This document shows positions 6,815-31,723 of a DNA stretch of 64,000 nucleotides, piece by piece. Every line of letters begins with the position of its first letter. Within the stretch, counting starts at the first letter, position 1. The stretch lies in NCBI GenBank assembly GCA_965655095.1, contig OZ296648.1, forward strand, positions 143,592,001-143,656,000, in the 5' to 3' direction. The position numbers were made by a program, and so were the translations under genes. The notes under the pieces were generated by a model. The model worked only from the letters and a program-made list of their open reading frames with translations. It was not told the DNA's origin and did not search any database. The DNA comes from Haplodiscus bocki (lineage: Eukaryota).

Positions 6815-8986
6815 TTACAAATTTAAGGGTTTTGTGTGTATTCCATCTTCTTCTACTATTCTTTTTGGATAAAAGTAAGACAATCCTTTCTTTGTTTGTT
6901 CATACGTAGCAACACTATGCTGAATCGTTCTAAATCCTCTATTGGTTGAAGTAACGTTGACTGCTTCTTCTAAGACTTTGCGATACTTTGCCATTGGACC
7001 ACCATCGCCACACTCTTCCAATGTTCTTTTATTGAGTCCTTTGCTGCTAAACTTGTGCTTGTTAGTCTGTTTATCATAACAACAATATATTTTGCTACAG
7101 AGACACAACATTTCTGCACATCTAAATTCATCTTTGAAAAGACCTGGCTCTCTTTTATCATGTTTCTTGTGGACATTACAGCAAGTCCTGGGGAAAAAAT
7201 TATCGGTAGCATTCGCAGTAAAATTATCATTGCAATCTTTAGAACGTAACTGATCCCATTCAGCTCGTTTTTCGGGAAGAATAACATCTTCTAAATTTTC
7301 TTCGGACAAAGCCAAGTAAAGGGAGTCGGTATCCATTTCAAGTTCTTCATACTTGTCAGTGTCACAGAATTTTTTGAAGAAATTGTAGTAAAGTTCCAAC
7401 ATTCTCAGTTTTGCATATTGTAAGATAAAGAAACCCACAATGATTGGTTCTCTGTGCTCAATTTCTGACTTGACAAGTTCCACTTCATACAGTTGATCAG
7501 TTATGTGATTAAGTCGCTTGAACAATTTACTATTAATTGCACTGTGGGTTTTTTCATCGCTCAGATACTTTGTCACTGTGTGTCGACTGCGATCCATGAT
7601 TTGATAGCACAAGAGCTGTTAGCTAATAGTTTCATAGTTTCGGCAACAACACTCGAATTTGGATTTTCATCTCCTTGTCGTCGTGCATCCACGGCAGACT
7701 GAACAAAACTGCCAAAACATTTTCTCGGAGTGTATTGAACAAATCGGTGAATCTTTTTACAAACTAACCCAAGTTGCAAATAAAACAAAAGCAAAGGAGT
7801 TATAATGGTGCCATTTGTTAGAATAAAGCTTGATATGAGCATTCTTCTAGGCTGAACCATAGTATTTTCCTTTTCTGCGTACTGTTTCATCAGATTGCCA
7901 ATATCATCCCTACTCACAGCAGTATTTTTGAATATGGGAGGAAAGTTGGAAAAGTAGTCGCGCAAGTGTTCAGGCACTTCAATATCACATTGAACATAAC
8001 CAAAGAGTTGCCCATCAATAATTCCGTGCAAAAGTCCTTCTTCACTCAATGGACGTCTGTAGGGAAAGTTTTTTCGGAGGTGACTTTTGACTGATGCATC
8101 AGTTTTATAGAGACTCCACCACTCACACTCCCACATTTCAACAATTTGGTAACCCTTTTGTTGTATGTAATCCCTACGCATCTCATCTTGCTGTCGCTTC
8201 TTCACTCGCCTCTCAATATCCGTATCTGTTAGAGAGGGACGTGCTTCTTGACAGGGACAGTAGTGATAGTAACATCCCATTGCTTCAAACACAGTGTTGC
8301 AATGATAACAAATTCCATCTACACTGAAGCAATCAATCTTCTTTTGTCTACCAGTAGTAACATTACTCTCAATTTTGCAATCTGGGCGACTTTGTTGAAA
8401 GTATGACAGAACCATATTCTCAAAGGAGCGAGATTTGTTTTGGCGAGCTGTGAATCTATTAGTCTCAGAATCGTACTCCCATCGCGTATACAATCCAGTT
8501 GGCATTGGTTGACATATTGAGTAGGGATAAAGCTGACTAGCATCGATACCAACGATTGATTTACACAAGTTTGATGATTTGCGTATAAAAGTTTCATCTA
8601 CTACAGCTTTACGTGTAAAGACAATAGAAGGACCGCCAACCATATCTTCTCGTATCTTCTCAAGCAAATCTTTATCCGACTCTGTAAAAGGATAAAATTT
8701 TGAGTCTGTCGATTTATGCAAACAAATATTGGCCAAATTGGGTAGTGTACATCCAAGTTTTAGCATATCAATTCCCTTGTTGTGGTAAAATTCAATCATT
8801 TTCTGCATTGCCTCTAGTGTCGGAACAACATCTTTATTGTATAACTACCACTTGAGGAAATCTGAGAAATTCTGCATGTTATTACTTTCCCAGACGCTTT
8901 GCAAATACGAATAGTTTTCTGCACCAGTCGGAGGTATTCGATCCATTCGTAATTTGGCTACTGCCTGCTCTGTTGTTAAACCACTG
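6815..8986 (-). pseudogene. Protein-primed family B DNA polymerase (pPolB), C-terminal ~720 codons, disrupted
   Basis: Motifs IREDMVGG, GIDASQLYP (motif A), KLLANSS[YG]YQIM (motif B, split by a frameshift at ~7608), EMDTDSLY (motif C), EPGLFKDE, CSKIY and SSKGLNK. In-frame stop at 8845-8847. ORFs 7573-8808 and 6815-7612. Confidence 0.93.
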
Positions 8987-9186
8987 NNNNNNNNNNNNNN
9001 NNNNNNNNNNNNNNNNNNNNNNNNNNNNNNNNNNNNNNNNNNNNNNNNNNNNNNNNNNNNNNNNNNNNNNNNNNNNNNNNNNNNNNNNNNNNNNNNNNNN
9101 NNNNNNNNNNNNNNNNNNNNNNNNNNNNNNNNNNNNNNNNNNNNNNNNNNNNNNNNNNNNNNNNNNNNNNNNNNNNNNNNNNNNNN
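8987..9186. other. Assembly gap (200 N)
   Basis: Run of exactly 200 N; pPolB does not recognisably resume after it. Confidence 1.
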
Positions 9187-12100: not shown

Positions 12101-13061
12101 CAAAAAAAAATGCAACTTACTATTACAATTTGTTCAAAATGTAATGCAACATTTGCTCGAAACAAAGAAACAAGATCTGAACACATGTGCACATTATGTA
12201 CCAGAAACAACTTCTCTATTTTTACGGAAAAGACGTGAAGCGAGAAACGGATTGATTGAATATCTTTGCTGACTATATCAAACAACGTTAGTGTTCTCGT
12301 TCAACCCGGGTTTACTACCATACAAAAAACGGGGAAATCATAGAAAGTCATATATGGTGATCTCTGAAAACATTAAAGCCATAGAAAGTACCATTAAGTT
12401 TATGGTAACATGCAAGCCATAAAAAGACCATACTGTAGTATGATTCCATGCAAGTCAAACACTGTACCATAGTATGGCCATAGTACGGAAAAGCATGCGC
12501 GAATTTCATCAGATTATGATAAAGTTTTCTGGTGAACAAAAATTTGACTTAAAATACTCATGGAAAACATTACATTAAAGGGTGAAGTTCGAAACTTTTG
12601 GCAATTATATGACTCAGGAGCATAGTAAATGCCATCTGCGTTCATTTCTGGTTGCATAAAATTAAAAATGAGCTTCTGTGAAATCCCATTTCCGACAAGT
12701 ATAGTGTACAGTGATGTAGTTTTACAAACTACGACACAAGTAAAAGTCTTTCTTTCTTAGCACAAACGCGGAAAGTTGAACTCTGAAAGTTGCTGACGGG
12801 CATTCTTTTTGGGTCTTGAAGTTGTCAAGACCTTTGAATTACTCGGAACTATGTAATTAAAAATTTGGAAGTTGTTTGTCGAAAAATAAATCAAGAAAAA
12901 CATGAAAATCATTAGATGACCATACAAAATAACAGTAAAGACATTAACTGGCCATATAGGTTTATGACTGACAGACATTTTATAGTATGACCATAGAAAA
13001 AACAGGAAACTAATGGCATTACCATAAGCTGTTTTTGTGTATGGCAGTTTATGGTCCATAG

Positions 13062-15459
13062 TGTTGCAGAGGTAGGGGGATGCTGTGCTACTACGAGCAT
13101 GTGGAAAGTAGAACTAGAACTTGAATTTAATTTTCTTTCTGGTTCTGATTTTCTCTACCGCTTAGTGCGGCAGGTGATTAGCGTTCCTTTTGTTGTCTGA
13201 AAGAGTACAGCGGTGGCGCCGCGGCAGTTGTTCTGTCTAATGAAAATAAGTCTCAGGGGTTTCATTGATCTACTTTCAGCTGCCTTGCTGGCTCCGCGAA
13301 CAAATATTGCGTAAGTTCAATAAAAAGGGCTGTTTGAGCGATGAAAGGAAAATAGAGAAAGAAATAAAAAACAGTTCAGTAAACCGGGGGAAATTAAACA
13401 TACGAGATTGAAGAGAAAAGGAAACGGTGCAATTTGGGAACTGAGTCATGTCTAGTTGAGAGCAATGGAAGTGGGAACTACTAGAAAAAGAAGTTGTCTG
13501 TTCCATTAACTTCACAAAGAACGGTTGAAGAAAACTCTTTAGCTTTCACAAAATAGAAAAAAGATTGATTCTCGTACGAAATTTCTGTCCCCTTCTGTAT
13601 CTAGTCCCAAACTTTAGCTCTCCATGAACCCGAAAGATAACCAAAGTGAAATTCAATCCATATTCAATAAGTCTGGAGATTATCCGGTTTTTAAAATATC
13701 CTGCAGGAAAGAAGATCGTTGATGACTTGATCTTATGGTTTTCATGATATTAAATCTTCAAAATGTGTGAAATTCGATCAAAATGCAGATAGTGGAAAAA
13801 TCCCAAAAACGAACGGTAATTTATGTTATTGAGTTGGACTAAAAAACCGGAAGACAATTTACTTGTCAGAAAAACTCCCAAAAATTTTTGTTTGGGATAA
13901 CTCAAGATAATGTTGAATAATATGGTTGACTTTATTTTTTGTTTTGGTCTAGGAAGGACTTTTTTTCTCCAGTTTTTCTAGCACTTTTTTTCTGACTTGG
14001 GTTTAGTTTTTGCTGGTTTCATTTTTTAGTTGTTAATTTATGTCATATGTAAAACACTATCTTTTAGTCTACACTCAGTACTTGCGTTAGCATAGCAACT
14101 GGTTCAGGGAGCTTGGTTTTCCCCGAATTTTCCAAACCGTTAGTAAATCTCCGGATTTTTTGACGGGGTTTGATATGTTTTAAATTTTGTCTAATACTCA
14201 GGTGAAACTCGCTTTCCAGCGGCGACCTGGTGATGTTCTCTTAGTCTGTTTTTCTCCACCCAAGAATGTTGTCTAGCAGATTTTTTGAAAGGGAATTCTA
14301 TAACATTAGAATTGGTCAGAGAGATATTATATTCTCTTTCTGAACAGGAAAACTTTTTAACTAACGGATACCGTCGATGGAGTCGGATGATCTGCGTGTT
14401 GTTCTGGGACTCTCCTCTCATGACTCTGACTCGCGAAGAGAGTGAATAAGAACTTTCAAATCAATGCGAGCAATGGAATTGTTTGAAAGTTACAGAAGGG
14501 GACGGTTTCCGCGTATTTATTCCGTATCTCGGACTTCAGAATAATTTCTAAAAACCATGGAAGCAGACGAGGTGAGATTTGATCTATGTAACGCTAATTC
14601 TTTTTTCCTAGGAACACCATGGAGGTTGTGCAGTTTATGATCCACTCATGCTTCAGGACCGGAGGTCGTTAGCGGCATCCGCACACGCTAATACCAAAGG
14701 TAGCGTTAGCGGAGACTGTGTAGACTCCAGCGGCAAGAGTATAGAATAAAACAAGTTGTGCAAAGTAAGGTTCACACTTGTTACAGAACCGAAGTTCATC
14801 CACGGAATCAGCGCACGGTAAAACCAAAGCTAGCGTTAGTGGACTCTGTTTAGACTGCAGCGGCAAGAGTTTGAAATGGGTAAGCAGAAAAGAGCGATAT
14901 TTTCTAAGTCAGAAAAAAAATGGGACTCAGAATATTTTTGCGAAGTTGGAATGATTTTGTGGCTATTACAGAATTTGGAATTGTCTTAGAAAATATTTTC
15001 AGGATTGCAGTTGGATTTAGACTTTTTTTGTCCAAAAAACAAAAAAGGAGAAAGGGAGTTCGACTTGAAATATTTTGTCCAAGTAAAAAGGGAGAAGGAG
15101 AGTAAAGTAAAGCAAGTCAGAATAGGAGTGTGGAGCCCCGTCCGTTAAACGGGAAAACGAATTTTGATCGGGTCGCTTTCCCAGATCGACTCCAAAGTAA
15201 CAGCGTGCTGCCGTTTCATGCAACCAATACAAAAATAGCTTGTACCAAAAATGGTCGGCAGCAGGAGCCATTAGACAAATAGCTCCCGTCAGAATGTTTT
15301 GTAATAAATTATTTGTGCAACTGCAACGGTTAATTTATTGCAGCTATTTTATTCTTTCTCTTATCCGCCTTGCAAGATTGTCTCCTTAGAAAAGGTTAGC
15401 TTTAATTATTTAGTCATATTTAAATTACTTAACATTTAATCGTTATGTGTAAAACGATA
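13062..15459 (-). repeat. 3' LTR (2398 bp)
   Basis: Collinear with 29325-31723; about 13 differences in the first ~165 bp by eye (~90% identity). Plus-strand ends TGTTGC...ACGATA. Confidence 0.95.
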
Positions 15460-15471
15460 TCTCACCCCGCT
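15460..15471 (-). promoter_or_regulatory. Polypurine tract (PPT)
   Basis: Minus strand reads AGCGGGGTGAGA immediately before the 3' LTR. Confidence 0.7.
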
Positions 15472-15500
15472 GAAAGGGAAGTGAATTTGATTGAGGGGCT

Positions 15501-16784
15501 CTATGGAAAAAGGAAGAGGAGGGAAGTTTGGTTGTGAGGTTTTAGCAGAGGAGGGTCGAAAAATTTGATCTCTATAAAATTCGCACCATCAATTAGAAAA
15601 CATTGAGTTTCGCTAAAGAGTTTGTAGTGAGGAAGGAAGTTATTGATGAGGATTGTTGCATCTCCTGTTTTTGTTGAGATTGTGGGATTCTTGAAGACCA
15701 GATCTTGATCAGGCTAAACTGTTTTGGTCCATGTGTTCAGTGGGTCCAGTTGATCACGGACACCAACGCTGATGATCTTCGAGAAGGGCCGTTGAAACAG
15801 ATTGTCGTAGTCAGCAGGGAAGAGGGTGGCTAGGATTGATGTACACCTGCCAGTTGCTGGTCCAATACCGTAAGGGTAGAACTTGATGGAAAATTTTTGT
15901 CCATGGGGATAAGTCCTGAAAAAAGGACTAGTAAAACTCGTGGTCGGTTCAAAAAGGGGATCAGATGATGGTCGGGCCACTTTTGTAGAGTCGAATAAGA
16001 ACTTCACTGAGGGCATCTTCCAAATGATAACATCTGAATTGCCGGGTTCGAGTTGGCGACTTTTATCATACGAGAAAAAGTTTTGAGAATGAATCCCCGC
16101 AGTAATAGACGTATAAGCTGCTATTTCATCCGTAAATAAATTTTCGAGTTTGGAAATTCTTGAAGTGAGGTTCTGTACCGTTGTTGGAGGAGCTTCCTGC
16201 ATGTTGAATGTGGGCTGGAAATCGTCGTTTGCAGAATTGTTTGTTTTCCCCGCGGGTGTTCCCACAGCGCCCACCGGTGTAGAACGACGAAATTTCGGGG
16301 CGTCAGCACAAAGTAGTTGGAGTGCAGTTGAAGTAGGGTTGAGGTTAGGGTTAGGGTTAATTAGAGGACTGGTAGCGGAGTTGTTAGCTGCAATATACTT
16401 GTTGGAGGTTGTTCCAATCGAGGAGAAGAGCAAATGGCGCAAAAAGGCACAGTCAATCCGCAGTTGAAGGACAATGAGTTGTGGTGTTTGTCGGTCGAGT
16501 TTTTCTCCCTTCAAGTGTTGGTTGAACTGTTGGATGCTCTTGTGAATAACCTGTAGACAGTTCGCTTGATGTTGGAGAGGTGAAGAAAAAGGAGATAAAG
16601 ATCCAGGAAGTAATGGATGAGCTGCTGCATCCTGCTTAGAGTGACTTGTCGGCAGAATAAGAGGGAGGATGAAAATGCCGTCAGCGATGGGTTGGTTAAA
16701 AGGAGGACCATGAGATGGGATGAATGGCCGAGGCATTCCGGGAAGAAATCGAGTCAAGGGACACTCCTTGTAGTAGAGTTGCAC
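15501..16784 (-). pseudogene. Retroelement cargo: coiled-coil + TRAF-type MATH domain protein (premature stop at 15714)
   Basis: Reads VIIWKM...FTSPFFRTYPHGQKFSIKFYPYGIG..GRCTSILATLFPADYDNLFQRPFSKIISVGVRDQ. In frame past the TAG it continues PDQDLVFKNP...NNFLPHYKLF...FLIDGANFIEIKF to a stop at 15501, matching the TRAF-C consensus. Heptad TVQNLTSRISKLENLF precedes it. Fragments at 16818-17361 are probably its frameshifted N-terminus. Confidence 0.85.
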
Positions 16785-17549
16785 AGCGAAATAGGTGGGC
16801 CCGAGGGAGGATGATAATCATGGAGGAAAACGGATGCAAGAGGGTTGAGCGACATCAGCGGGAAAATGCGGCGATCGCCTGTGGAGGGACCAACAACCGT
16901 TGAGAGGGTAGATATGTGCTTTGAACCGTGTTTTCTTGGCATCGGCTATCCCAAAAGAATATTTCCCAGGTATAGAATTCTGGTTTGAGACTGTATTGTA
17001 AATGTTGATTGAAGCGGGTTTGTTTTGTTCTCCCTGTGTTTTTAGTATACTTTTCACGGCGATGTTGACGTCCAATAGTAGGGTGATCAGGCTGAACCTT
17101 GAGGTGACTGGGGTGTGAAAGAACGGGTCGAACGTCCCATAGGAGTGAACTAATTGGAGGAAATCCTTCTGTTGCTTTAGATTGATCGTTTTCAAGCAGC
17201 AACACTGAGAACTGTAATCCGGTTGAAGGAGAAGAAGCGGCGTCTGAGATTACGTTTGTGGGATTGTTAGTATAATGTGAAGTTGAGGCGGACGACCCGT
17301 TGGGCGAAGCTGAATGAGAGGGTATTTTTGCAGGAGAGGAGGTAGGAGAGAGAAAGGTCACGATAGGGTTAGAGGGAAGGTCGGAACTAGAAGGCGTAAA
17401 CGATTGGAAATCTTGTTCTGGGTCGAGAAAGACTGACAGACAATCGTCACTAGGAGGAAAAGTTCAGTGAGATGCGGCCTAAGGAAAAGAAATAAAACAA
17501 AGTTAAACAGGAGAAAGTGGAGTTACGGATCGGTTAAATTGAGCCGGCA

Positions 17550-19738
17550 TCATGACTGGATAAACATGTTCTTCCTTCTTCTTAGTATCCTCTCACATAT
17601 AGTGTTACTCTTCCTGATTACATAGAGTTTTTCTCTTTTCTTCTACCGCAGCGAGTGCAGGCGTGCGTGGATCAAAATTAAAGTCAAAACTGACCCAAGA
17701 AATATGTTTTATGAGGTGCTTAGAAGGGTCTTACTGAAATCGAGTGATGCGCCAGTCATTTTCGTTTTTTCTAAGTGGCGTATTACCATAACCACAGCAT
17801 CTGTTAGAAATTTTAAAAAAACACGGAGATTTTGATTCCGCAGTGTTCAAGAGCGTAGACGACTGGTCCAAATGTATCCATAAACTTATCTTTAAAGCAG
17901 CCAGGTGAGATAATATTGTCGACATAGGAATCTCATTAGGGAGCATAATAAGGATAATTGTCCGAGTTCTTGTTATTGTTCGAAAAGACAATGAGTTTTT
18001 CCGAGAACTCCTTCTGATCATTTTGGGAGGCAGCACTGCTCAGGATTTTGTCCCAAAAACTACTGATTTCCTTTCTAGTGTACATTGCAGCATCTTGAGA
18101 TCCAGGGAAAAATTGAACTGCCACTGCTGAAACTTCTTTGGGCCCAAACACAGCGGGTCTGTCCTGGTGTGCAAGGCCAGGTGTTAGTGTATACCAAGAA
18201 TCTTCTTGGTCCATGTCGAATTGAAAGAGGTTTTTGATTCGGTCTCTACAATTTTGTAAGTTAGCGGCGGGGTGTTTTTGTTGTGTAATGGGGTCAGCAA
18301 AAAGAATCTGGCCATCGTAGAGTATCGGGATCCGATCGAAGCACTGGTTCATAGTGTGAAGTGTTGAATGAACTAGTGGGCAGTGATACAGGCCAGCTAA
18401 ACTGCAATCAGTTTCCAGAATTTTTTACCAATTTCCAGCGATTATATACCCTGCGAGGCGTGGGTTTTCAAGAGATAGCATCAGAACAGTAAGAATTTGT
18501 GTTCGTTCTTGCTCATATTGGTTTTTAAAGAGTTTTATCTCAGAAGCTTGAAGTAATTGTGAGCTCTGGAAGAAGAGGTAGTCCAATTTTGTTCCCATGT
18601 GCATTTCGTAATCCATATTCAGATACATGTCTTCATCGCTTGTTTTGTGGGACGTGTGTTTCGGATCGTAGGCATAGAGTTGCGCAAATCCGTTTTTCTC
18701 ATTGGTGCTATGTACTGTAAGATTTGAGTTGCACCTTTCCGTTCCTTGACAAGATTCCTTGCAGATCTCAAGTCAAAGTTTCCGTTGATGATTGCTACAA
18801 AGAAAGAATCGTAATAAGTTGGGTAACTATCTGTCGGCTTTCTACATTGTTTTTGAGGATTGTTTTCGTTTTCAAATACAAAATTGGTTGTCGAGACAGG
18901 TCTACTAATGATATTTTCTTTTGTTCTTTGTTTCACCATGTTAACGTCTTCGGTTTGGAGGATTGATAACACACAGTTGTCATGGTAGTCCCATATGTAG
19001 GCGTAAGGATCCAGTGAAATTGTCAGGCAACTTAATTCTTCCAGTGCGCATGGCAAAACTTGAAGAGAGTCGGAAAAAATTTTCCCAGTTGACGACATTC
19101 TGACTTTTAGTTTTGTTTGTTGCATATGAGCCAGGATGGTATCACGGGTAACCCAACCACCTGCGATGCAGCGACTTCTGTTATTACCGCTCGTAGAACC
19201 CTCTGCGATTACAAAAGTATTCATTGTGTCACACTCAACTTCCACAAATCGAACAGCCAGAGACATCATACTTCCTGTTGCAAGAGATCGGCCTTGTTCT
19301 GGTGAGATTACTAAGTCACTAGTAATTCCAGCTATAGTATGATCGGTGCTGCTGTGGCCGTTATGTCCACAGTGTTACTCTACTCACTGGTGCTGAATTC
19401 GACATTTTGTTGCGTTAAGTTCTTTCCGGAATTGCTTAGTGTAGAGGATATATTTCGTTTGACTATTTTCCAATTCCTCCGGTGTAATGTGGCTTTGTCG
19501 TGCCTGGTTGAGAGCTTAGAGAGTGCTTTCTGTCGAGGCACCACAATCGAAGTGAGACACTCTAAAATTCTTGGCAACATGGTCTGCATCTGGAACTAAA
19601 GTGCAAACAACCTCGGAACAAAAACGAGGATTTGAAGAAGAATTAGCGTCCTCGCTGAACATTCCAGCGGAAGTTCCGTCTGTGGTATTTTACTTCAGAG
19701 GGTAAAACTAATAAAAACAATGAAAGTAGCGTCTTCAC
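17550..19738 (-). pseudogene. env-like envelope glycoprotein resembling gB-like/chuvirus-type class III fusogens; multiple stops and frameshifts
   Basis: Signal-like VKTLLSLFLLVLPSEV at 19738, then SHFDCG, LNATKCRI..HCGH, LPCALEELSC..DPYAYIWDYHDNC, GTKLDYLF..EQERTQIL..LSLENPRLAGY and LYHCPLVH..NQCFDRIPILY..FADPIT..QNC. Hydrophobic stretch near 17800. 3' end approximate. Confidence 0.75.
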
Positions 19739-20307
19739 GGAGTGTCTCAGTGGAAGTTCATTCCATGGTTTTTGGGGAATAGCTATTGAAAAAGACCGTA
19801 ATATCAAACTGGCGCTTTGTAGGCGCTAACACAAAGTGGGACTTAACATTTTATGGTAGTAGCTCCACTACTATTAAAACGATGTCGAGATTTTCAAAAA
19901 GAGTGCCGGATTAAAACAGGTATCACCGAAAAAAGTGCCATATTAAATTTTAAAAATAACTCACCTGGACCATTGAATTGGTTTAATTGTAGTTTTTTTG
20001 TTTCGTTGTGGGCTTGTGGTTTGGTCCTCAGAGACTGAAAATTGACACCGACGAATGAATTCTTTAACTAAGTGTCTGGTCAGAGGATGAGTGTTTCTGA
20101 AGTGCGAAAATTTCGTAGGTTCTTGTTGGGCTAAAAGGAGACTTGTTAGCTCTTCAGTTTTGCTTTAAAGTGAAATTTCCAGTTTCCAGGTTGCAGTTGC
20201 CTCACATTGTGGGCTGGTATAACAATTGGGCAGATACTTCGCTCCACTCAATCTTTGTGATCTCCACGTGATTACTTGTAGCAGGGGGCTGCCTGCGGAA
20301 CTTGATG

Positions 20308-21359
20308 TTAAAATCGAATGTCATATAGATCAACAAGAGGGTGCAGGTTTTGGATCTGTGACACCTCATTAAATCTCCCAAAGCTTTTGTCCATAAAATC
20401 CAACAAATCGTCCAAGCTTTGGTTTTCCCTTTTATCCAGTGTCCTGGAAATTTTTAGAGCCACAAAAAGACTGGCGAATTCTTCTGTTTGGACTGTTGTG
20501 GGAATTCTCAACAACCCGCAATCTGACTTGTAATGGATTTTTGTCCCCTATCCAGAAGATTTTAGTTATAAAGTGTTCTTGCAGAGAAAAGGCTGTCCAA
20601 TTGCAGCGAATGTCAGCTCTCAGATGCGTCCTGTTGTCACCAGGTCGTCTTAAATTAGTTTCTATTGGGTGCACTGAGTGAAGTGTCATTCCTTCAAAGT
20701 GTTTTTTACATGCTTACGATCTTCGTTGGAGGAGGGTTCTCGAAGAGACTTTCAAAAATTGCAAAGTTTGCAGTTTCTGGACGATAAGAAAAAGTAGCTT
20801 TTCCCCAAGTTTCAAGTTTTTTCGTGTCGATTTGGTGACTTCGAAATGTAATGTTATAGGTCAAGCTTTTGTTAATGTAGATTTTGTCGTTTATATCGGG
20901 AAAAGTAGTGGTCATGTAACACTTTCCGTCTTGGCTCTTGATCAAAACTGGAGGTGGATTTTTAAAAAGAGCTGCATTGAAAGAATAGTGGGATATTCCG
21001 GGAGTACAATTGTAGGCGAGTATTTGTTCATCATGGGTAGACTCCGTAATTACTCTGATTTCTTTGGTAAAATTGTTAAAAATGTTGCTCACGATTATGT
21101 GGAATTGTTTGTCAATATTGAGAAGGGTATGTGTCATTTAGATACGGTAGTCTTTGTTTCCTTAACCGATGTTGCTAGGCATGTAGATTTCTGAATAGAG
21201 GAGTTGGCGTAAATGATAACGCTTAGGCGATCCAGAAGGGCAAATGTACACCTCTTTTGTCTCTTTTTCAGTTTCAATATGGAGTATGACAGTCTTGGAA
21301 ACGGTTGTCAGTTCAATTCGTATGATTGCTTTTAATTTTCCCTCCTTTTTGAAATACAT
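20308..21359 (-). pseudogene. Unknown accessory ORF of the retroelement (stops/frameshifts)
   Basis: ORFs 21162-21359 and 20706-21137 are in the same frame and continue by frameshift into 20432-20689 and 20308-20514. Internal repeat ALFKNPPPVLIKS / SLFENPPPTKIVS. Confidence 0.55.
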
Positions 21360-21769
21360 CGAGTCATAGCAAAACTGACAACGAAGCCATCAGTTTTTTC
21401 ATTGCTCTTCGAGTAAGTAGAATTTTGAAATTATTAATAATAAACTAAGGTTTTCCCTAAAATTTTCATTGGTTAAAAAAGTTTTCACAAAATTAAAAAA
21501 AAACATTGATCAAGTCAGCGTTTTTTGTTTCTTCCATTCTACTGTATTTTTTGTTCTGCTACGTTTATCGTAGTAGGGCCTTCCAGGGTAGAATTAGGTG
21601 TCTCGTGGGTTGGGTAGGAGTCGGATTGAGTAAGGCGAAAAGAACAAGAAATTGCAAAGTTCCAGCAGGATATTTATGAGAAATTCAAGGAATCATTGAA
21701 AAGATTAGGCGTCGGGATAGGAACCAGGGGTCGTAGTTTCATTATCAAAAACTTTCTTGTTGTTGAAGG

Positions 21770-22471
21770 ATGGATCACTACGAAAAGTATTTCGAAGAGG
21801 AAGAAGAAGTTAAAATTGAAAATGAGGAGGTAGTGGTTAGCGTAGTAGCGCCACAACCAGTGAATATGCCACCAGGGGTTGTAGTGGGTCCGGTTGCCGG
21901 GTCACCGGAGTCGCCTTTGCCCTCCCCGTCGCCTCCATCGCCGTCTCTCCAAGAACCTTCTCCGCCCCAAAGTTCCCCGTTAGGGGATGCGCCGTTATTC
22001 ATGGGTTCTTTTAAAATTGATGACATCGTAGATCTCGATCAATGGGCGATGGATGCGAGGGCCACCAAAGAAGACCCAAATGTCCGCAGTGAGGAGCCTG
22101 AGATGTCACCCAACCTGAAGACATTCATGCGATATACGCTGGGGACACAATGGGAATTGAAACTGATTCGAGAGTCGGGAGAAAGAGTTATCTGCCAACT
22201 AAGAGCTTACTTAGAGGGTTACAACTCGTTGACTAGCTTCAACTGCCGCAGTGGCTCCGGCTGTTTTGTGCCTGGACGGCAACTGAAAGGCGAGAGCAGC
22301 TGGAGCTGCTCGCCGAGGCTGGTGGTTTTCTTGAGTTGTGAGGCTTTCGGGCCTTCCTCTGGGTCGTCGGCCGTTCTCGGCCGACGGCCTTTTTCTATGT
22401 CTTGTGCCCGCCGTTGTGGTAAAAATCTCGGAGTTGCACGGAATAAAAAAGGGAGGTATCAAAATGTTTAG
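21770..22471 (+). CDS. Antisense ORF inside the retroelement; acidic and Pro/Ser-rich protein of 233 aa
   Basis: ATG-initiated 702-bp open frame opposite to gag-pol, with an EEEEEE N-terminus and a PSPSPPSP tract. Coding-like sequence with stops continues to ~22900. Confidence 0.5.
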   Translation: MDHYEKYFEEEEEVKIENEEVVVSVVAPQPVNMPPGVVVGPVAGSPESPLPSPSPPSPSLQEPSPPQSSPLGDAPLFMGSFKIDDIVDLDQWAMDARATKEDPNVRSEEPEMSPNLKTFMRYTLGTQWELKLIRESGERVICQLRAYLEGYNSLTSFNCRSGSGCFVPGRQLKGESSWSCSPRLVVFLSCEAFGPSSGSSAVLGRRPFSMSCARRCGKNLGVARNKKGRYQNV

Positions 22472-22980
22472 GAGAAATTATTGGAATCATCAGAAAAAAA
22501 TGCGGAAACTGATGAGTCAATAGAACGAACTGATTCATGATCAGACTTTTCAAAAGCAATATTATCGAAGATGTGTGAAGGAATTCTGGTCGAAAGATAG
22601 AAGAGCAATTCTTCGAGCAAGGGCTCAGAACATGAAAGAGAGTGTCGTCAAAGAAGTTCGTATAAACTAGCCGTAGCTTTAGAACCGAAATGAACTTGAA
22701 GATTACTTTTGTTAACGTGAAGTTTGAGATAGATAGGGGTTTAGAAGAGACGCAGACACGGACAATATGAGTAGCATAATTCCAATATACTTTAGTGAGA
22801 AGTGCTGAAACGTAGTTCAGACCGTGCCAATCAGGAAGGACCTGCCCAATGCAACTCGGGTAAATCTTATGGCATTTAGGCATTGTTATCTGGAAAAGAA
22901 AAATCATAAAAACCCCGTAGAAAAAATGCAAGCAAGCCAAACTAAACATACAAAAAAGGGTATAACTCAGTAACAAAAAG

Positions 22981-24650
22981 TTAGAATTTGTAGTGCTGGC
23001 GAGTGCGAGTGCGGCGCACTGAGTGTGGATAAAGATGATTGGGCTGTGAACGATTGTAATTAGGTTCCTTGGCTTTGGGTTCACGGCTATTATTTTTGAA
23101 TTGTTGAAATGGAGTTAATGGTCCACTAGGAGGATTCGTTCGTGAAATTGATGGTATTCGATGGAGCTGCGATATATCAGGAGTTATTGGCAGTTCCGGC
23201 GATAAGACATGAGGAGAATTGACTCCAGGGTCATTGCTAGTATTAATGACTCGTTTCTGAGGAATTGTAATAGGGGTTGTCCGAAAGGGTTCAATAGGAA
23301 ATGGGAAAGAATTTCCCATGCCTGATTTTTTGGTATTGTTCAACTTCTGGATTCGCTGCTGCACGAATCTTCCGTGAAAATCGTCATGACGTCGATCCAT
23401 AGGCATATATTTTTCGTTAATCGGGGGTGGGGTTTCTTCCTCAGGTTAGTATTCGACTAGATGAGTTTGGTGCACCGTTTTGAGAATTTTAGGATCCCTG
23501 TCATGTTGAATTTGGTATTTGGTGTTAGTTACTCGTTTTGTTACCGTAAAAGGTCCGATTTACCTCTGTCGAAGTTTCTGGCTTGTAGAGAGATCTTGGC
23601 GATGACTTTCGTAAAGAACTTTTTGGCGGATGTCGAGGTGTTGTCTCAATTTCAAACGGTTTCTGTAGCCATGCGATCTATACGTTTTTTCTTGATATCT
23701 TCCAAAAGTGGCAGAATAGATGCTTTTGAAATCGCGTTCTCGTTCCAAGAGTGTGTGTAAAATTTGCGGTCGAAGAAGATTATCTAATAACTGATTCTTT
23801 AGATTGTTCTCACTGTGTGAGAGAATTGGTAGGTCTTCGCAGAATTCAGAACTGCAAACTTTCTGAATAATGCGATAGAGTCCAAATTTCAGAGAAATAG
23901 GAATCTGAGGTTTTGTCCCGGAAACAATTTCATAAGTTGTGCTTCCAGTTGTGTAGTTGACACTTGTATTGTGGGCAAAAGCGAAATTCGTTTCTGAGGA
24001 AGACCAATTGTTTCCAGCGTCGTTCGAAAGGTTCCGCCAAAAACCAGCAAAATGTTGACTCTGTCTTCCATTTTTTCCGTTAGTCTATGACTAATGAGCA
24101 GTTTTGTGTCGTAAAGTACTTACTAACACTTTTGTCCAGTTTACGAAATCGGTGTTGCTGGAGGCAGTGCCTCAATCGTGCACAATAGATTGAAGAATTC
24201 CGAATGAATGGACCCTTTTCTCGACAGCCGAAATTGTAGCTTGAGCACCAGTGTTAGTAACTGGGTATACCATCAGCAAGCGAGAAAATGCATCAATAAC
24301 CAAAAGACAACGAAGGTTGCGATTACTTGAGGGGTGGATAGGTCCTTTGTGATCAATATGGATTGTTCGGAACGGAACAGTTCTTTTTGCCGTTCTTCCA
24401 ATGGAACTTCATCCGGTGCTTGGGTTCAGGCTTGATATTCTGGCAGGTGAAGCAGTCAGCAGTATGTGCACATATCCAATGAAACATACCAGACCAGTAG
24501 TAGAAATGTTTTGCTTTGTTGTAGGTTTTTGAAGCGCCCATCTGTTCGCATACTTTGTTGTAATGTCCAAATTCGAAACATGCTAGGAATAGTGACAGAG
24601 GTAAGCAAATTCGTAGGATTTCATCGTCTAATTTATCAGTAGGTTCGTTG
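22981..24650 (-). pseudogene. Integrase (HHCC zinc domain, DDE core, long C-terminal region), fragmented
   Basis: GH..MGASKTYNKAKHFYYWSGMFHWICAHTADCFTCQ, then IHIDHKGP and LLVIDAFSR; downstream fragments 23889-24071, 23560-23748 and 22981-23406. Confidence 0.85.
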
Positions 24651-24678
24651 TAGTATAAAAGTTGTCCTTCTTTTTCGA

Positions 24679-25611
24679 TTAGGATTCGGTCGAAATCTTG
24701 GCAATGTCGAAAAGAGATTTTGAACTGTTGAATTTCGGTTGACTTTGTTTCGGGTGAAGTTCGTTTACGTAGCCAGCATCGACCAGTACAAAGAACAGGT
24801 TCTTTGATTTGTTTGGACAGGATCGTGGAGACATCAAGATCACTGTTTTAGCAACATCATCTAATTTAGGATTTAAGGACTTGGTATCCAAATGAGGTGC
24901 CTCAGTGGTTGTTAGCGACTTCTTTGCTAGGGAAGTGTCAATTTTTCCCATGACAGCGTTATGAGCTGCTTTGGTTATGCACACACGATAGTTGTCGGCA
25001 TTTAGGTTTATTTCCCATACTAGGTTGTGTTCGTCGTCGTTTATGATCGCGTCAGCATCATCAGAGGGTTTATCCAGGACGTCATTGCCTTCGTTAACAC
25101 TCAGCGAGTTGATTGAACTGTATGTTGGTTCAGAGTCTTCTACGGAGCTCCAAGATAGCGTTGAAGGTAGGCAGTGGCATCTGAATTGGTCGATTTTTCG
25201 GCCCATTCTGAAACAATCGGTTGCGGGTTGAATCGTTGTTGTGGGAAACTTGTTATTGAGACTGTTCAATGTGATGTTTTCACCATGATTGTCCAATCGG
25301 AGGACCTTATTGTCATTCCCTTGTTGGCAATGGATTGGGTAGAAGTCGTTGCAAGTGTCGTTAGGAATATCATCGGGTTGAATTCTATAGGTTACTGGAG
25401 AGCCATGTTCATCATAGATTTCTATATCCCTAGGTTTCTTTTGTGTTGTAATTGATGTTTCTGGTATCCCTCTACTCCTACGTTTTGACTTAGGATATCC
25501 GCGAAAGCAAGATATAATCCTGGAGTCTAGATACTCTTGAGACTCTGTAATTTCGTCATGATCACTTGGTACCTGAAGAACCGATGGGTTAATCGTCCTT
25601 TGGGTCCCCAT
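24679..25611 (-). CDS. 310-aa non-canonical pol segment between RNase H and integrase
   Basis: Open frame lying between the RNase H end (YLFCGHKPIL, ~25630) and the integrase zinc finger; Asp/Asn/Ser-rich with no recognised motif. Confidence 0.55.
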   Translation of the reverse strand: MGTQRTINPSVLQVPSDHDEITESQEYLDSRIISCFRGYPKSKRRSRGIPETSITTQKKPRDIEIYDEHGSPVTYRIQPDDIPNDTCNDFYPIHCQQGNDNKVLRLDNHGENITLNSLNNKFPTTTIQPATDCFRMGRKIDQFRCHCLPSTLSWSSVEDSEPTYSSINSLSVNEGNDVLDKPSDDADAIINDDEHNLVWEINLNADNYRVCITKAAHNAVMGKIDTSLAKKSLTTTEAPHLDTKSLNPKLDDVAKTVILMSPRSCPNKSKNLFFVLVDAGYVNELHPKQSQPKFNSSKSLFDIAKISTES

Positions 25612-26800
25612 CAGTCAAGAATCGGTTTGTGACCACAAAACAGGTATTTAAAAAGGAGATTCAATGATGTAATGTTCATAGGTTTGTAAAACTGAAACTA
25701 TTCCACATAGTTCTCTATGGAGAGTAGACACCTTCTGTTCAGATTTGTCGAAAACTCTTGAGTTGAAGGGAATTATCCGTTTCCCTCAGCAAACGGTTCA
25801 ATCAAAAGACAGTTAGTTTTGACATTTGATGAATCCACATGAAAATGCAAAAAATAATCAGTTGAGGGTACAGCAAAGATCGTGTCTTCGTTTTTTCTGT
25901 CTTTGATTGATTGAAACAGTTCTTCGTCTTCGTGTCTCCAGTGAAAAGGAGTCAAGTCCTTAATCAAGTCAAAAACGGTTGACTATCTCCATGGAGATTC
26001 TTGAAATAAGAACTGTAGAATCCAAGGCATCTAAGAACTTTCATAACATCTCCTTTACTTTCAGGTGATATGAGGTTCTTCAATTCATTCTGGGCAATTA
26101 ACGTGACCAAAAAATTTAATTTTCTTTAGAAAATAGAATGTTTTGTCAGCAGCTGCCTTGAGACCGGCCTTCCTAAGAAGGGTATGGTACTCTTTAATGA
26201 CCGTGATCATCTCCTTTTTGTTTTGTGACTGCTTCATTGTATCATCAATGTACGTGATTGCTTGCTTTTTCTTGATGAGTGGATCGAACTGAATCGTCAT
26301 GAGTCAACTAAAGAAGTTTGGAAGTCCCCACAATCCAAAGAATCCACGCGTGTAAGTGTACTGCTTTCCACCGAGTATGAAACTAGTTTATTTTTGTACT
26401 TCTGGGCTCAATAGAACTTGATGATGGGCACAAGAGAGAACCCTTACTGAGAAAAATTTCCCGTTGACCCTAGTCATTATCATTTGCATTGGTTCTAAGG
26501 GGCGGGATTATTTTGTGAGATCTGTCACTGAGTTGAGATATCTAGCGTCAATTACTAACTTCACATAGTCGTTTTAGGCATTCGGATGATAGGGTTATCA
26601 GACAACGATCCCATCTTGTTGTTATCATCCATTTCACAAATGTTATCTGCGTCCTCTAGTTGTGTGAGTAGTTTTTCCAATTTCTCCTGCCAATGTAACG
26701 GAACTTTCCTAGGTCGTTGTCAATTCAGTTCAACATTTTTTTCAGTGTGACATGGAACCTTTGACGAATTTCACCCGCATTGCACATATGTTGAGAACAA
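25612..26800 (-). pseudogene. Reverse transcriptase + RNase H, fragmented
   Basis: KLVIDARYLN (~26550), GKQYTYTRGFFGLWGLPNFF (~26350), QAITYIDD, GLKAAADK..FLKKIKFFGH; RNase H FHVDSSN and NSRVF. Confidence 0.9.
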
Positions 26801-26999
26801 GCATCCTGCGCATCAACGAACATGTCAATCAGGATTATCATTTCTTCATCAGTGATGTCTGAATACTGGAAGTCGAATTGTTTTACATAGTTGATCAGTT
26901 CCTTTGGTTGGTACTGAAGATAGTGATCAATGGGTCGGTTGTTGTGATCTTTCTCGCGGAGAACCGGGAATTGTTTGTCACAAGTCGTTTGACAGGATT

Positions 27000-28360
27000 T
27001 TGAATCTTTAGTGAAGTCTGTTTCTAACTCGTGGTTTGCTAAGATGAATTCTTCTGTATCGTTCTATCTCATCGTCAGCGTAGAAAAACACCGTCGCCTT
27101 AGCGGACAGCGCGTGAACTCCATTTTCCACCAGAGTGTCGACTACAATTTGTACGTCAGCGTAAACCAAAGTATCACGGAGTAGTTTCACAATTTCATGA
27201 TTGTTCATTTGGTCCAGTCCACAACCAAGTTTGGGTGTGGCAATAGTAGAGACATGATTCGTACTTGCGTGAATCTTCTTGGCTTCTAATTTTTTAGACG
27301 GCGTAGATAGGTTGGGTTTATCGCAAAAATATTCTTTAGTCACTAGGTTGTAGATATAACGCTTTCCGATTGAATCCCAGGAGGGGAAGACTTGTCCTAT
27401 TAAAAGTTTTGCTTTGCGGCATGTTGATCTGAGATTAAAATTTCTGTGGGATTAGAAGTCGGCAAAACCTTTGCTCATTCGAGCATCAGCAAAGATGCAA
27501 TGTCTGGTTGAATTAGGTTGTTGGAGGATCGAATCTTTTGTACCATAGATGATCTGTAAAAGTTCGTCACTGCTCTGGGCTGGAACTGTTGAGAAAAGGA
27601 GAGAGCAATCATTGTATCGTTCATCAGTAGAGCTTTTAACGTTCGTTAGCTTGTAGGGACTCTGTTTTTAGTATTTAGGTTGATCTCCATCAACCACGTC
27701 GAGAGAAGAGATTTCAATTAGCTTTTTAGGTAGTATTATTTGATTATTTTTGTTGTTTTCCACCGGTATCGGAAGGCTACGTTCGGATCGATTGCATAAA
27801 GTTTTTACAAAGCCAGACCACTAGCCACAGCGTTTCGAATCGGTTGAAATTTGGAGCCTGGCGGGAAATGTATATTAGTATCTGTGGGCGAATTTTTCCA
27901 GCGAAGGTCGCTTTCAGCATCAATACACATTTTACAAGGGGTCCTAACAGTCACAATTTGTGATAAATGAAGATAGGATTTCTTTTGGTGAAACCAGCCA
28001 TAGCAGATTGAATTCGGTGTATTCTTTATCTCAGTTTCATATAGACCAAAATGAATTCCAGAGACTTGTTTTTGGCAGAAATCCGTTCCAATGAAGTTCT
28101 GAGTCTTCATTTTAGTGATCCATACTGTTGGTGGAAAGATAAAGTGTCCATGTGGGTCATAATTAAAAGCTATATTTGCGTAACCGATCAAAGGAACTGT
28201 TTGTCCTGAGTACGTCTTCGTTACTTTGGTACTTTTTTGTAGAGTAATTGTCTGCTGTGCCTAACAAATCTCCCAAAAATTTCGATACTTGATGATTGAG
28301 CGAGTTGCTCCTGTATCCAACAGGAGTTCAATCTCTAAACCACAACCTTTTTGGGTGTCT
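27000..28360 (-). pseudogene. Aspartic protease plus long PR-RT spacer
   Basis: ELLLDTGATRSII at ~28290-28330 and NFIGTDF motif in ORF 27805-28191. Confidence 0.85.
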
Positions 28361-28608
28361 CCGGTGGCGAAGTAGAAGATATTTAGGCTAAGTCTACAAT
28401 TTCGAGTTTTGTTGACGTTCCAGTTCGGAGACCTTAGTAGTTTAACGGACAGAGATCTGATAATTCGTTAATAGTGTCATCGGTTGTGATGAAGAGAACC
28501 AAATTAGGTGACGTCTGGTTATTGTTTTGTGGAAGTTTTTGTGCGTGGGGCGTAAAACCCGTCGTGGGTCGGTTTTAAGATCTGCGGAAGACAGAGTTGT
28601 TAGGTTTA

Positions 28609-29300
28609 TTACTTCATGGTAGGCGGTAAGAAATGTTTTGTCAGAATTCTCTCCTTGAAGTCGATGGAGAACGAGAAAGTTTCCGTTGTTTCGCCATGTC
28701 CCATTTTGAATAGTGAAAGATCAATTTCGGGACCAATTTTCATCGCTTCAATTGGAAAACTGATTTGGGCGCTGATCATATGATCTTCCATTGTTCGGAT
28801 GGTTATTCTCATATGCGAAGTTTGGCCTTGGAGAGCAATTCTGGTAAGATGTGGAAAAATTTCTTGTAGGTCCATCTCTATTGTACTTCTGGTTCCATCT
28901 TTGGAAACGTTGGCCTCTGGTCCATTGTTCTGATCCATGATCTGGTCCCCATTTTTTGATGTATTCCTGAGTAAAAGTGACTTCTTTCTCGGGAGTTTTC
29001 AACGAGCTTCAATTCTTCCTCTCGAATCTTCATGCGGCACCAACTTGGGGTATGTCCGTTCGTGCGGCAGTAGTTGCAAAATCGTGTTGCATTCCGTCTT
29101 GTCTTTTGGTTTGGGTCTACTGTTCGAGGATTTCCCTTAACAGCATTAACTCGGTGTTCCTGTAATTCTGATAGTAGGTTTTTCATTTTCTGTCCCATTG
29201 TAGCCATTTGAGGTTTTGTTTGTTCTTCATCGTTTTTATGAAAATTAAGACTTAGAAAGACACGTCTCTCTGAAGTATTCGGGTTGAGAATTCATTCCAC
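28609..29300 (-). pseudogene. gag, C-terminal part with CCHC zinc knuckle
   Basis: FCNYCRTNGHTPSWC (CX2CX4HX4C) in ORF 28878-29207, followed by an N/R/Q-rich tail in a frameshifted ORF. Confidence 0.85.
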
Positions 29301-29303
29301 GTA

Positions 29304-29321
29304 GCATCATTGGTCGAACCA
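29304..29321 (-). promoter_or_regulatory. Primer-binding site-like sequence
   Basis: TGGTTCGACC.. begins 3 nt after the CA end of the 5' LTR on the minus strand; the cognate tRNA was not identified. Confidence 0.65.
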
Positions 29322-29324
29322 TTT

Positions 29325-31723
29325 TGTCGCAGAGGTAAGGGGATGCCGTGCTAATACGAGCATGTGGAAAGTAGAACTAGAACTTGAATTCAATTTTCTT
29401 TCTGGTTCTGATTTTTTCTATCGCTTAGTGCGACAGGCGATTAGCGTTCCTTTTGTTGTCTGAATCAATACAACGGTGGCGCCGCGGCAGTTGTTCTGTC
29501 TAATGAAAATAAGTCCCAGGGATTTTTGTTGATATACTTTGAGCTGCCTTGCTGGCTCTGCGAACAAGTTTTCCGTAAGTTCAATGGAAAGGGCTTCATG
29601 AGCGATGAAAGGAGAATAGAAAATGAAATAATAAATTATTCAGTCAACCGGGGGAAATCAAACATTTGCGATTGAAATGAAAAAGAAACGGCGCAAGTTG
29701 TGAACTGAGTCATGCCTAGCTGAGAGTAATGGACGTGAAAACTACGAAAAAACCATTGTCTTTTCAATTAACTTCACAAAAAAACGGTTGAAAAAAGTTG
29801 TCTAGCTTTTACAAAATAGAAGGAAGAAAATAATTCCCGTACAAAATTTCTGTCCCCCTCTGTTTATAGTCCCGAACTTTAGCTCTCCATTGACTCGAAA
29901 GATAATAAAAGTAAAATTCAATCCATTTTCATTATTTCCGGTGTTTGTCCGATTTATAAAACATCCTGCACGAAAGAAGATCGTTGATGACTTGATCTCA
30001 TGATTTTCATAACATAAAATCTCCAAAATAAATGAAATTCATTCAACATGCAGCTAATACAAAAGTATCAAAAACCAATGGTAATTTATCTTATTAAGTT
30101 GAACTAAACAACCGGAAGAAAATTTACTTGTACAAAAAACTCCCGAAAATGTTTGTTTGGGATAACTCGAGACAAAGTTGAAAAATATGGGTGACTTTAG
30201 TTTTTGTTTTGGAACTAGGACGTCGACTTTTTTCTCCAACTTTTCTAGCACTGTTTTCATGATTGGGTTTAGTTTTTGCTGGTTTCATTTTTTAGTTGTT
30301 AATTTATATCATATGTAAAATTCTATCTTTTAGTCTACACTCAGTACTTCCATTAGCATAGCAACCGGTTCAGGTAGTTTCGTTTTCCCCGAATCTTCCA
30401 AACCGTTAATAAATCTCCGGATTTATTGGCGGGGTTTGATGTGTTTTAAAATTTGTCTAACACTCAGGTAAAAGCTCGCTTTCTAGCGGCGACCTGGTGA
30501 TGTTCTCTTAGTCTGTTCTTCTCCACCCAAGATTGTTGTCTAGCGGATTTTTTGAAAGGGATTTCTAAAACATTAGAATTGGTCAGAGAGATATTCTCTT
30601 TCTGAACAGCAAAACTTTTCAACTAACGGATGCCGTCGATGGAGTCGGATGATCTGCGTGTTGTTCTGGGATTCTCCTCTCATGACTCTGACTCGCGAAG
30701 AGTTTGAATAAGAAATTTCAAAACAATGCGAGCGATGGAATTGTTTGAAAGTTACAGAAAGGGACGGTTTCCGAGTATTCAATCCGTATCTCGAACTTTA
30801 GAATAAATTCCAAAAACCATGGAAGCAGATGAGGTGAGATTTGATCTATGTAACGCCATCTCTCTTTTCCTAGCAACACCGTGGAGGTTGCGCAGTTTAA
30901 GATCCACTCATGCTTCAGGACCGGAGCTCGTCAGCGGCATCCGCACACGCTAATTCCGAAGGTAGCGTTAGCGGACACTGTGTCGACTCCAGCGGCAAGA
31001 TTAAAGAGTAAAAAAAGTTGTGCAAAGTAAGATTCACACTTGTTACAGAACCGAAGTTCATCCACGGAATCAGCACACGGTAAAACCGAAGCTAGCGTTA
31101 GTGGACTCTGTTTACACTCCAGCGGCAAGAGTTTGAAATGGATAAGCAGAAAAGCGGGATATTTTTCAAGTCAGAAAGAAAATGGGACTCAGAATATTTT
31201 TGCGAAGTCGGAATGATTTTGTGGCTATTACAGAAATTGGAATTGTCTTAGAAAATTTTTTGCAGGATTGCAGTTGGACTTAGACTTTTTTTGTCCAAAA
31301 AACCAAAAAGGAGAAAGGGAGTTGGGCTTGAAATATTTTGTCCAAGTAAAAAGGGAGAAGGAGAGTAAAGTAAAGCAAGTCAGAAGAGGAGTGTGGAGTC
31401 CCGTCCGTTAAACGGGAAACCCAAATAATGATCGGGTCCCTTTCCCAGATCGACTCCAAAGTAACAGCATGCTGCCGTTTCATGCAACCAATACAAAAAT
31501 AGCTTGTACCAAACATGGTCGGCAGCAGGAGCCAATAGACAAATAGCTCCCGTCAGAATGTTTTGTAAAATATTATTTGTGCAACTCCAACAGTTAATTT
31601 ATTGCAGCTATTTTATTCTTTTTCTTATCCGCCTCGCAAAATTGTCTCCTTAGAATAGGTTAGCTTTAATTAATTAGTCATATTTAAATTAATTAACGTT
31701 TAAGCGTTATGTGTAACGCGATA
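29325..31723 (-). repeat. 5' LTR (2399 bp)
   Basis: Direct repeat of 13062-15459; plus-strand ends TGTCGC...GCGATA, followed by TSD ATAG. Confidence 0.95.

Follow-up and report, generated by a model that had tools for sequence, protein, structure and literature searches.

The stretch of DNA analyzed here, a 64-kb window of the Haplodiscus bocki genome, harbors a decayed copy of an 18.7-kb env-bearing Ty3/Gypsy-type LTR element that occupies positions 13062..31723 on the minus strand. Its 5' LTR (29325..31723) and its 2.4-kb 3' LTR (13062..15459) are 89.4% identical, and the pair is flanked by a 4-bp target-site duplication, ATAG, at 13058-13061 and 31724-31727. Read in the direction of the element, the 5' LTR is followed by a primer-binding site (PBS, 29304..29321), the TGG of which lies three bases past the LTR end, by the 3' part of gag (28437..29308), and by pol in the order PR-RT-RH-IN (22984..28467), as identified by Pfam on a natural copy (L036) and mapped to the window. 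An ORF on the plus strand, antisense to the element, sits between pol and env at 21767..22471. The env gene (17506..19676), with an ORF of about 730 codons, encodes a mononegavirus-type fusion glycoprotein; it is frameshifted in the window copy, where the match to PF24664 has an E value of 2e-9, and gives 9e-34 in copy L037. Directly after the env stop, sequence inspection finds a splice-acceptor-like site made of a pyrimidine tract and a TAG (17479..17510). Next come an ORF of about 207 codons, here called ORF X (16855..17478), an overlapping stop/start TGATG (16853..16857), a TRAF-like accessory gene (15501..16855), and a polypurine tract (PPT, 15460..15471) that abuts the 3' LTR, all of them on the minus strand.

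The LTRs, PBS, PPT, 4-bp target-site duplication, gag, and PR-RT-RH-IN order of pol that define the Ty3/Gypsy elements (Metaviridae) are all present, and the element is assigned by this layout to the env-bearing, errantivirus-like Ty3/Gypsy elements, with a separate env ORF for a viral fusion protein. The window copy itself is old and dead: its TRAF gene carries a frameshift and an internal stop, env and pol are broken, and the leader and the 5' third of gag are gone. Seven further elements of the same family (family A) have LTR pairs that are 97.1-99.9% alike where both LTRs are in view; three of the ten could not be measured. The family-A LTRs mostly start with TA, as they do in the window (31723 and 15459), and those of families B and D start with TG.

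The product of the TRAF-like gene reads, from its N-terminus, as a PAM2-like motif, a helix, a Pro/Ser/Thr linker, a coiled coil, and a MATH domain. The original prediction, made from the window alone, had described the gene as the last ORF before the PPT, in sense orientation and about 40 bp from the 3' LTR, and this is where it lies: the terminal stop (15503-15501) is 41 nt from the LTR. Its proposed start at 17,361 has to be given up, since the true ATG is at 16855-16853 and the stretch 16858-17361 belongs to ORF X in another frame. The single stop that was to be read through does exist, as a TAG at 15716-15714 interrupting the minus-strand frame 16817-15501; in addition, a net frameshift close to position 16,760 splits the first 32 or so codons from the remainder.

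The gene is far from peculiar to this copy. A MATH query of the 1.5-Gb genome found 3,486 candidate places, and 147 of the best 150 that were scored have no stop in the 107-aa match, in a ranking that favors intact copies; open TRAF frames of 430-500 codons occur in many other copies. The tail of stop, PPT, and LTR is found at 30 of 30 loci, three tandem duplicates and the window copy itself being among them. The order of genes is common to at least four families of this genome (A-D), as judged from regions of 20 kb around ten copies of family A and of 24 kb around copies of families B (four), C/C2 (three), and D (three). Where unbroken, the layout is LTR, gag, pol, antisense ORF, env (PF24664), ORF X, TRAF, PPT, and LTR. 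Between families, identity is 90-96% in RT-RH, 43-51% in the MATH domain, and 34-43% in ORF X. Copies of family D are young, with LTR pairs 98.5-99.7% identical. The lineage is one of high copy number, and the TRAF-like gene, first noticed in a single copy, is fixed in it and belongs to all four families.

Relatives were also sought elsewhere. The 120 ENA proteins listed as close relatives are 67-96% identical; their source is probably this species or a near one, so that they do not count as independent support. Proteins such as P0275, P0198, and P0266 fall in the clade of the element TRAFs, and P0275 is not from this genome. No relative was confirmed among the JGI metagenome contigs with an element domain or among the viral contigs with a host-like TRAF. 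Closer at hand, the window holds a second and far more decayed element on the minus strand (49400-58720), with remnants of gag, pol (26-41% amino acid identity to family A), the antisense ORF, and env. Its MATH remnant at 49873-49451 has a similar tail, which suggests that a deeper branch of the lineage carries the TRAF gene as well; a DNA search with this remnant found only itself.

There are several other features of the window and the lineage to record. The antisense ORF (window 21767-22471, plus strand; 262-984 on the minus strand of L033) occurs in all four families, is under purifying selection in the antisense frame (dN/dS ratio, w, of 0.08 for shared variants), and found no family match. 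The leaders between PBS and gag in natural copies (L044:2011-2670; L125, L156, and L159) hold two to four hydrophobic micro-ORFs of 38-61 aa, none of which is listed in family B, together with a conserved ORF of 106-119 aa that has two paralogues in family B; this leader is lost from the window copy. The pol gene of L036 (3913-9453) shows a weak match to a Macro domain between protease and RT (E 0.0012, below the cut-off). Elsewhere in the window there are three tandem 1,214-bp repeats with gag-like sequence (58228-61868), a pair of 100% identical direct repeats (2547-2846 and 5733-6032), and a run of minus-strand ORFs with only weak nuclease-like matches (6815-9306).

The MATH (TRAF-C) domain, at 15561..16031 of the minus strand, is recognized by sequence and by fold, as had been predicted. 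With the internal stop read as X, the window frame (Pfam accessions for the domain PF21355 and PF22486) matches TRAF-mep_MATH with an E value of 3.6e-8 and 34.2 bits (cut-off 27.4), and MATH_2 with 32.8 bits (cut-off 32); the unbroken part of the frame alone still reaches 29.2 bits for TRAF-mep_MATH, above the cut-off, and falls below it for MATH_2. Three natural open copies give TRAF-mep_MATH E values of 1e-16 to 1e-17, and the natural copy L008 matches TRAF sequences in the PDB at E 1e-13 to 1e-8. The predicted model of L008 has a disordered N-terminus and two long helices (93-144 and 221-263) ahead of the MATH sandwich, and a fold search with this model retrieved TRAF1/5/4/2/3 with E values of about 1e-11 to 1e-12; the nearest viral folds are iridovirus TRAFs. 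The second helix, with 43 residues directly before the MATH domain and a pLDDT of about 80-87, is the expected coiled coil of TRAF-N type (16055..16185, minus strand), and the first corresponds to 16425..16577 on the same strand. TRAF proteins carry an N-terminal RING in all members but TRAF1, plus zinc fingers. The element frame has no Pfam match to RING or zf-TRAF, and the L008 model contains neither, in keeping with the predicted lack of a RING.

What the MATH domain binds is a different matter. TRAF1/2/3/5 contact receptor peptides of the PxQ/ExT type through S453-S455, D399, and G468 (PMC6125299). When the TRAF2 residues were mapped through a canonical relative in 1ca4 numbering, with the serine triad placed by eye, the S453-S455 position read D-P-A in family A, K-T-P in B, and E-P-P in C, and the D399 position was I, L, or F in the element families. 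R393 is retained in family C only and Y395 in families A, B, and D. The serine triad and D399 are missing from the element and host TRAF genes alike, and only the element proteins have lost the equivalent of G468. With these hot-spot residues absent, binding of classic TNFR tails is unlikely, and the MATH groove probably accepts ligands that are not PxQ/ExT peptides.

The gene is of host origin. Among the strongest Pfam MATH matches in the genome are two genes on contig 5, L053 and L054, which lie at 9.06 and 50.4 Mb and look single-copy; no flanking LTR pair was seen in 30 kb of sequence around them. Both carry an intron near the end of the MATH domain, and the element frame reads straight through the same place. 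In a tree of MATH domains the element TRAFs form one clade (support 100) that joins L053 and L054 apart from the other host and canonical MATH domains (99/97, with five proteins lacking a recognizable domain start left out); a second tree gives the same grouping apart from other MATH domains with a support of 100, and the position of family D differs between the two. The N-terminal long helix is alignable between element and host proteins. The joint clade and the loss of the intron support the capture of a spliced mRNA, and the prediction of a captured, intronless gene is borne out by this relationship to the host TRAFs; a single capture event is indicated. The RING, on the other hand, was probably not cut away by the element. 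In L054 the first exon is short, and its Met stands some 20 residues ahead of a single half zinc finger (a weak match, E 0.006; the relative P0299 agrees); this zinc-finger half is gone from the element copies. Pfam finds no RING in the predicted proteins of L053, L054, and their relatives, the first exon being placed by that one weak match. Since the nearest host genes thus appear to be RING-less too, loss of the RING probably preceded the capture, and the simplest account of the sequences is that the element captured the spliced mRNA of a host TRAF that probably had no RING.

Is the captured gene of any use to the element? Selection was assessed by classing single-base variants against the commonest codon of each alignment column, which gives a simple count without correction for transition bias on copies that are not independent of each other. 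The set for family A held 56 copies (L100, L001, L029, and L030 were left out as duplicates); those for families B and C held 25 and 13 rows, with L079 left out as a duplicate and one duplicate element, L142/L157, included in C. Variants seen in a single family-A copy have w values of 0.76-1.28 in the separate regions and 1.10 over all of them, the neutral pattern expected from decay after insertion. Variants shared by at least four copies are strongly skewed: in the MATH domain there are 25 nonsynonymous and 103 synonymous ones (w 0.07; Fisher p 2e-31 against singletons at w 1.07), and in the first 12 codons, which hold the PAM2 motif, there are 1 and 7 (w 0.05; p 0.002 against singletons at w 1.10), small counts that come with so short a stretch. 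The coiled coil has a w of 0.14, the first helix 0.12, and the linkers 0.40. The MATH domain gives a w of 0.11 in family B and 0.09 in family C, and the first 12 codons have 0 nonsynonymous and 6 synonymous variants in each, with significance in C reached for the MATH domain only. Among shared variants of 11 whole elements, w is 0.04 for MATH, 0.05 for gag, 0.07 for env, 0.01 for RT, 0.14 for ORF X, and 0.08 for the antisense ORF, which puts the constraint on MATH on a par with that on gag and env. Purifying selection on the common variants means that the TRAF gene was useful while the elements replicated, and the neutral evolution across copies that would have spoken against a function is confined to the singletons (about 1.1, compared to about 0.07 for MATH). 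The idea that the gene is a neutral passenger, a host fragment carried without function, may draw on the broken window copy and the neutral singletons; the strong purifying selection on common variants in three families makes it scarcely credible.

The N-terminus holds a motif that was missed at first. The PAM2 motif, xxLNxxAxEFxP, binds the MLLE domains of UBR5 and PABPC1, its Phe being the main determinant (PMC9249222). The window copy reads MSLNPLASVFLH at 16820..16855 of the minus strand, with the final Pro lost, and the family N-termini are MSLNPLAPAFLP in A (L045), MTLNPHAPIFKP in B (L060), and MTLNPFAPTFRP in C (L154). As in known PAM2 proteins, the element motif keeps the register L-N-x-x-A-x-x-F-x-P (L3, N4, A7, F10, and P12) with its key Phe; unlike in those proteins, the Glu is not retained, and the motif sits on a TRAF protein encoded by a mobile element. 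The pattern is present at 39 of 56 family-A, 22 of 26 family-B, and 11 of 12 family-C loci, and at none of 10 family-D loci, 4 host loci, and 17 host-like proteins; shuffled proteins give it 42 times in 12,000. It also occurs in 75 of the 120 ENA relatives, many of the others being called from a later Met. The Pfam model PF07145 scores 20.4 bits in L033, 18.8 in L045, and 16.6 in L126 (two family-A copies and one from B; cut-off 20). That is, among six motif-bearing 20-mers, one is at the cut-off, two are below it, and three have no match; family C, the window copy, and four control 20-mers from the elements give none. The roughly 90 residues that follow are poorly alignable between families A, B, and C (24-36% identity), and the motif is as constrained as the MATH domain in all three. 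From its sequence, the motif is predicted to bind the MLLE of a poly(A)-binding protein (PABP) or of UBR5.

A possible partner is encoded in the genome: a host UBR5-like gene with MLLE and HECT domains, its MLLE split by an intron (L052:2-424 and 1498-1905). A PAM2-like stretch lies directly ahead of this MLLE and has no Pfam match. Searches for other host MLLE domains returned only the UBR5-like exon in the family search and two UBR5 pieces in the search for longer proteins; an MLLE motif pattern gave no match, which is not evidence that the host PABP lacks an MLLE. The best match to a PABP model was set aside as a candidate for the host PABP because it looked like a different RRM protein, which we take to be SF3B4.

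How the TRAF gene might be expressed bears on ORF X. In families A, B, and C this ORF lacks a Met, and in the window copy it has a stop at codon 5. In families A, B, and D it opens right after the acceptor-like pyrimidine tract and TAG behind the env stop, and its shared variants have a dN/dS of 0.20 in its own frame, the two remaining sense frames giving 1.18 and 2.47. Taken together, the missing Met, the selection in its own frame only, and the start behind an acceptor-like site make it likely that ORF X is a second exon. No joint at the putative acceptor of L045 appears among the joints listed for contigs of four runs of unspecified library type. In family A the stop of ORF X overlaps the ATG of the TRAF gene as TG|ATG in 29 of 55 copies and as TA|ATG in 19 (48 of 55 together), so that the variable base keeps the stop; the overlap is ATGA in family B, TGATG or ATGA in C, and absent in D. 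UAAUG, UGAUG, and AUGA overlaps are known signals for reinitiation (PMC5972666), and by analogy the overlap suggests that the TRAF ORF may be translated in this way. The TGGGA found upstream of the overlap, at -113 and -98, also encodes a conserved Trp-Glu or Trp-Asp and is not independent evidence.

The protein of ORF X is modeled with an acidic Pro/Ser-rich N-terminal half, a basic helix, and a small SH3/Tudor-like barrel. Its C-terminus (window 16855-17118, minus strand), which comprises the helix and the five-strand barrel of the model, is conserved across families. A fold search with the barrel gave matches with Z of 4.0 or less and found the common barrel only. Going by the model, ORF X could possibly be an RNA- or chromatin-binding regulator. 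A weak Atlas match to ETS (0.81) was rejected because the model lends it no support.

Our preferred reading, to which we give a chance somewhat short of even, is that the TRAF-like product is a trimeric adaptor that links a host protein of the TRAF pathway to one with an MLLE domain and would likely dampen stress or death signaling in cells expressing the element. By analogy with known systems, ribosomes on a spliced 3' RNA would reach the stop of ORF X and then reinitiate at the ATG of the TRAF gene. A TRAF-type trimer would then have three PAM2 motifs at one end and its MATH domains at the opposite one. The host partner might be bound by the coiled coil and MATH domain, and the PAM2 motifs might tie the trimer to PABP-coated mRNPs or to UBR5. 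The outcome could be sequestration of the partner on mRNPs or its ubiquitin-linked removal, with signaling dampened. The identity of the bound partner, the choice between sequestration and removal, and the direction of the effect are the least secure part of this proposal. There is a precedent in TRAF2, which lowers NF-kB signaling when held in stress granules (PMC7552005). Neither PAM2 nor the overlap is needed for replication, as the young family D lacks both, and its different placement in the two trees is compatible with a loss of PAM2 in D or with an earlier branching.

A rather unlikely alternative, and close to what was first predicted, is a plain dominant-negative decoy, in which the coiled coil and MATH domain poison TRAF trimers or occupy receptor tails and PAM2 is a minor aid to localization. 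Both domains are constrained, the element has lost the lone zinc-finger half of its host counterpart, and family D thrives with little beyond the two; however, the donor genes appear RING-less already, the classic receptor-binding hot spots are absent, and PAM2 is constrained like MATH in three families, which points to an adaptor instead of a bare decoy. What endures of the prediction of a retroelement accessory decoy is the captured, intronless, and selected accessory gene at the end of the element; a RING loss made by truncation in the element and classic receptor binding are both improbable. None of the outcomes named there as refuting (no MATH match, presence in one copy only, neutral evolution across copies) came about. 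Unlikely to a slightly greater degree is a bolder version in which PAM2 would recruit UBR5 and MATH would pick the target, making the protein a degradation adaptor in a lineage as complex as a complex retrovirus, with leader micro-ORFs, an antisense gene, env, a spliced regulator, and a coupled accessory gene. Viral proteins that redirect host ligases offer a parallel.

More doubtful still is an RNA-handling scaffold without any immune role, whose trimerized PAM2 would grip PABP on the element RNA for translation, storage, or packaging. The selection on PAM2 would fit this, as would the loss of the Gly468 equivalent in the element proteins only and the fall of MATH identity to 43-51% between families in which RT stays above 90%; but MATH is tightly constrained within families, and family D has a MATH gene with no PAM2. 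An activator, which would switch on NF-kB/JNK-type signaling or death for the sake of LTR transcription, proliferation, or particle release, seems improbable. The nearest viral folds are those of iridovirus TRAFs, and one of these, the pro-apoptotic ORF111L of the megalocytivirus ISKNV, binds TRADD and induces apoptosis (PMC3352826); it does so, however, with a RING that the element protein lacks. Preferring the adaptor to these alternatives, we turn to how it compares with known systems.

Captured TRAF domains have been seen in LTR elements before. The planarian Burro1/GYPSM1 elements, with thousands of copies, carry MATH_TRAF_C together with an env akin to the fusion proteins of mononegaviruses, as the present element does, and a role in apoptosis or ubiquitination has been proposed for them (PMC6431247). 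In Burro, MATH is part of the ORF1 polyprotein or of an accessory ORF lying upstream, and env is in frame between gag and pol, within a giant polyprotein that also has BIR, ankyrin, and BCL2-like motifs (PMC6431247). The H. bocki element has separate gag, pol, and env genes, and Pfam scans of its ORFs found no BIR, ankyrin, or BCL2-like domains; its TRAF forms a gene of its own at the end of the element, after a separate env and ORF X, and carries a PAM2 motif. ISKNV ORF111L is likewise a virus-captured TRAF with coiled coil and MATH, and is among the top viral fold matches; it is a DNA virus gene with a RING, and the accessible part of its report does not mention PAM2 (PMC3352826). TRAF1 and the host genes L053/L054 also combine coiled coil and MATH with no RING, and the host genes have the N-terminal helix in common with the element. 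The element TRAF differs in having no zinc-finger remnant and no introns and in the added PAM2 and Pro/Ser/Thr linkers; it also lacks the TRAF1/2/3/5 hot spots.

Stop/start coupled translation is known from influenza B, the caliciviruses, and the SART1 retrotransposon (PMC5972666), whose UAAUG, UGAUG, and AUGA overlaps with an upstream TGGGA resemble those found here in the 3' genes of an LTR element. Bdelloid LTR elements have captured ORF3 genes, and extra 3' ORFs of this kind are typically expressed from spliced RNA (PMC5408684); the captured genes described there are esterases, exonucleases, or membrane proteins, whereas that of the H. bocki element is a TRAF. The word TRAF is absent from the main text of that paper (PMC5408684), and a word search of the main text and seven supplements of a 2026 survey of env-bearing Ty3/Gypsy elements found no mention of TRAF or MATH domains (PMC13524379). 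In the literature searched, most subscription journals being outside its scope, there was no report of a stand-alone 3' TRAF gene, or of PAM2 in a retroelement or a TRAF protein. A TRAF/MATH domain in LTR elements is therefore known from Burro, and the 3' stand-alone placement, the PAM2 motif, and the stop/start coupling are new as far as that literature goes.

These results take the capture of TRAF genes by LTR elements from domain annotation to a host donor, an intron loss, a measured selection, and an added motif that can be tested. They also mean that the thousands of TRAF-like matches in such a genome are genes of the elements and not an expansion of host immunity. If the PAM2 motif binds PABP or UBR5, a retrotransposon would have joined immune-type signaling to the mRNA or ubiquitin machinery in one protein, and, if the proposal is true, such elements would face and counter the signaling defenses of the cell, beyond silencing by small RNAs.
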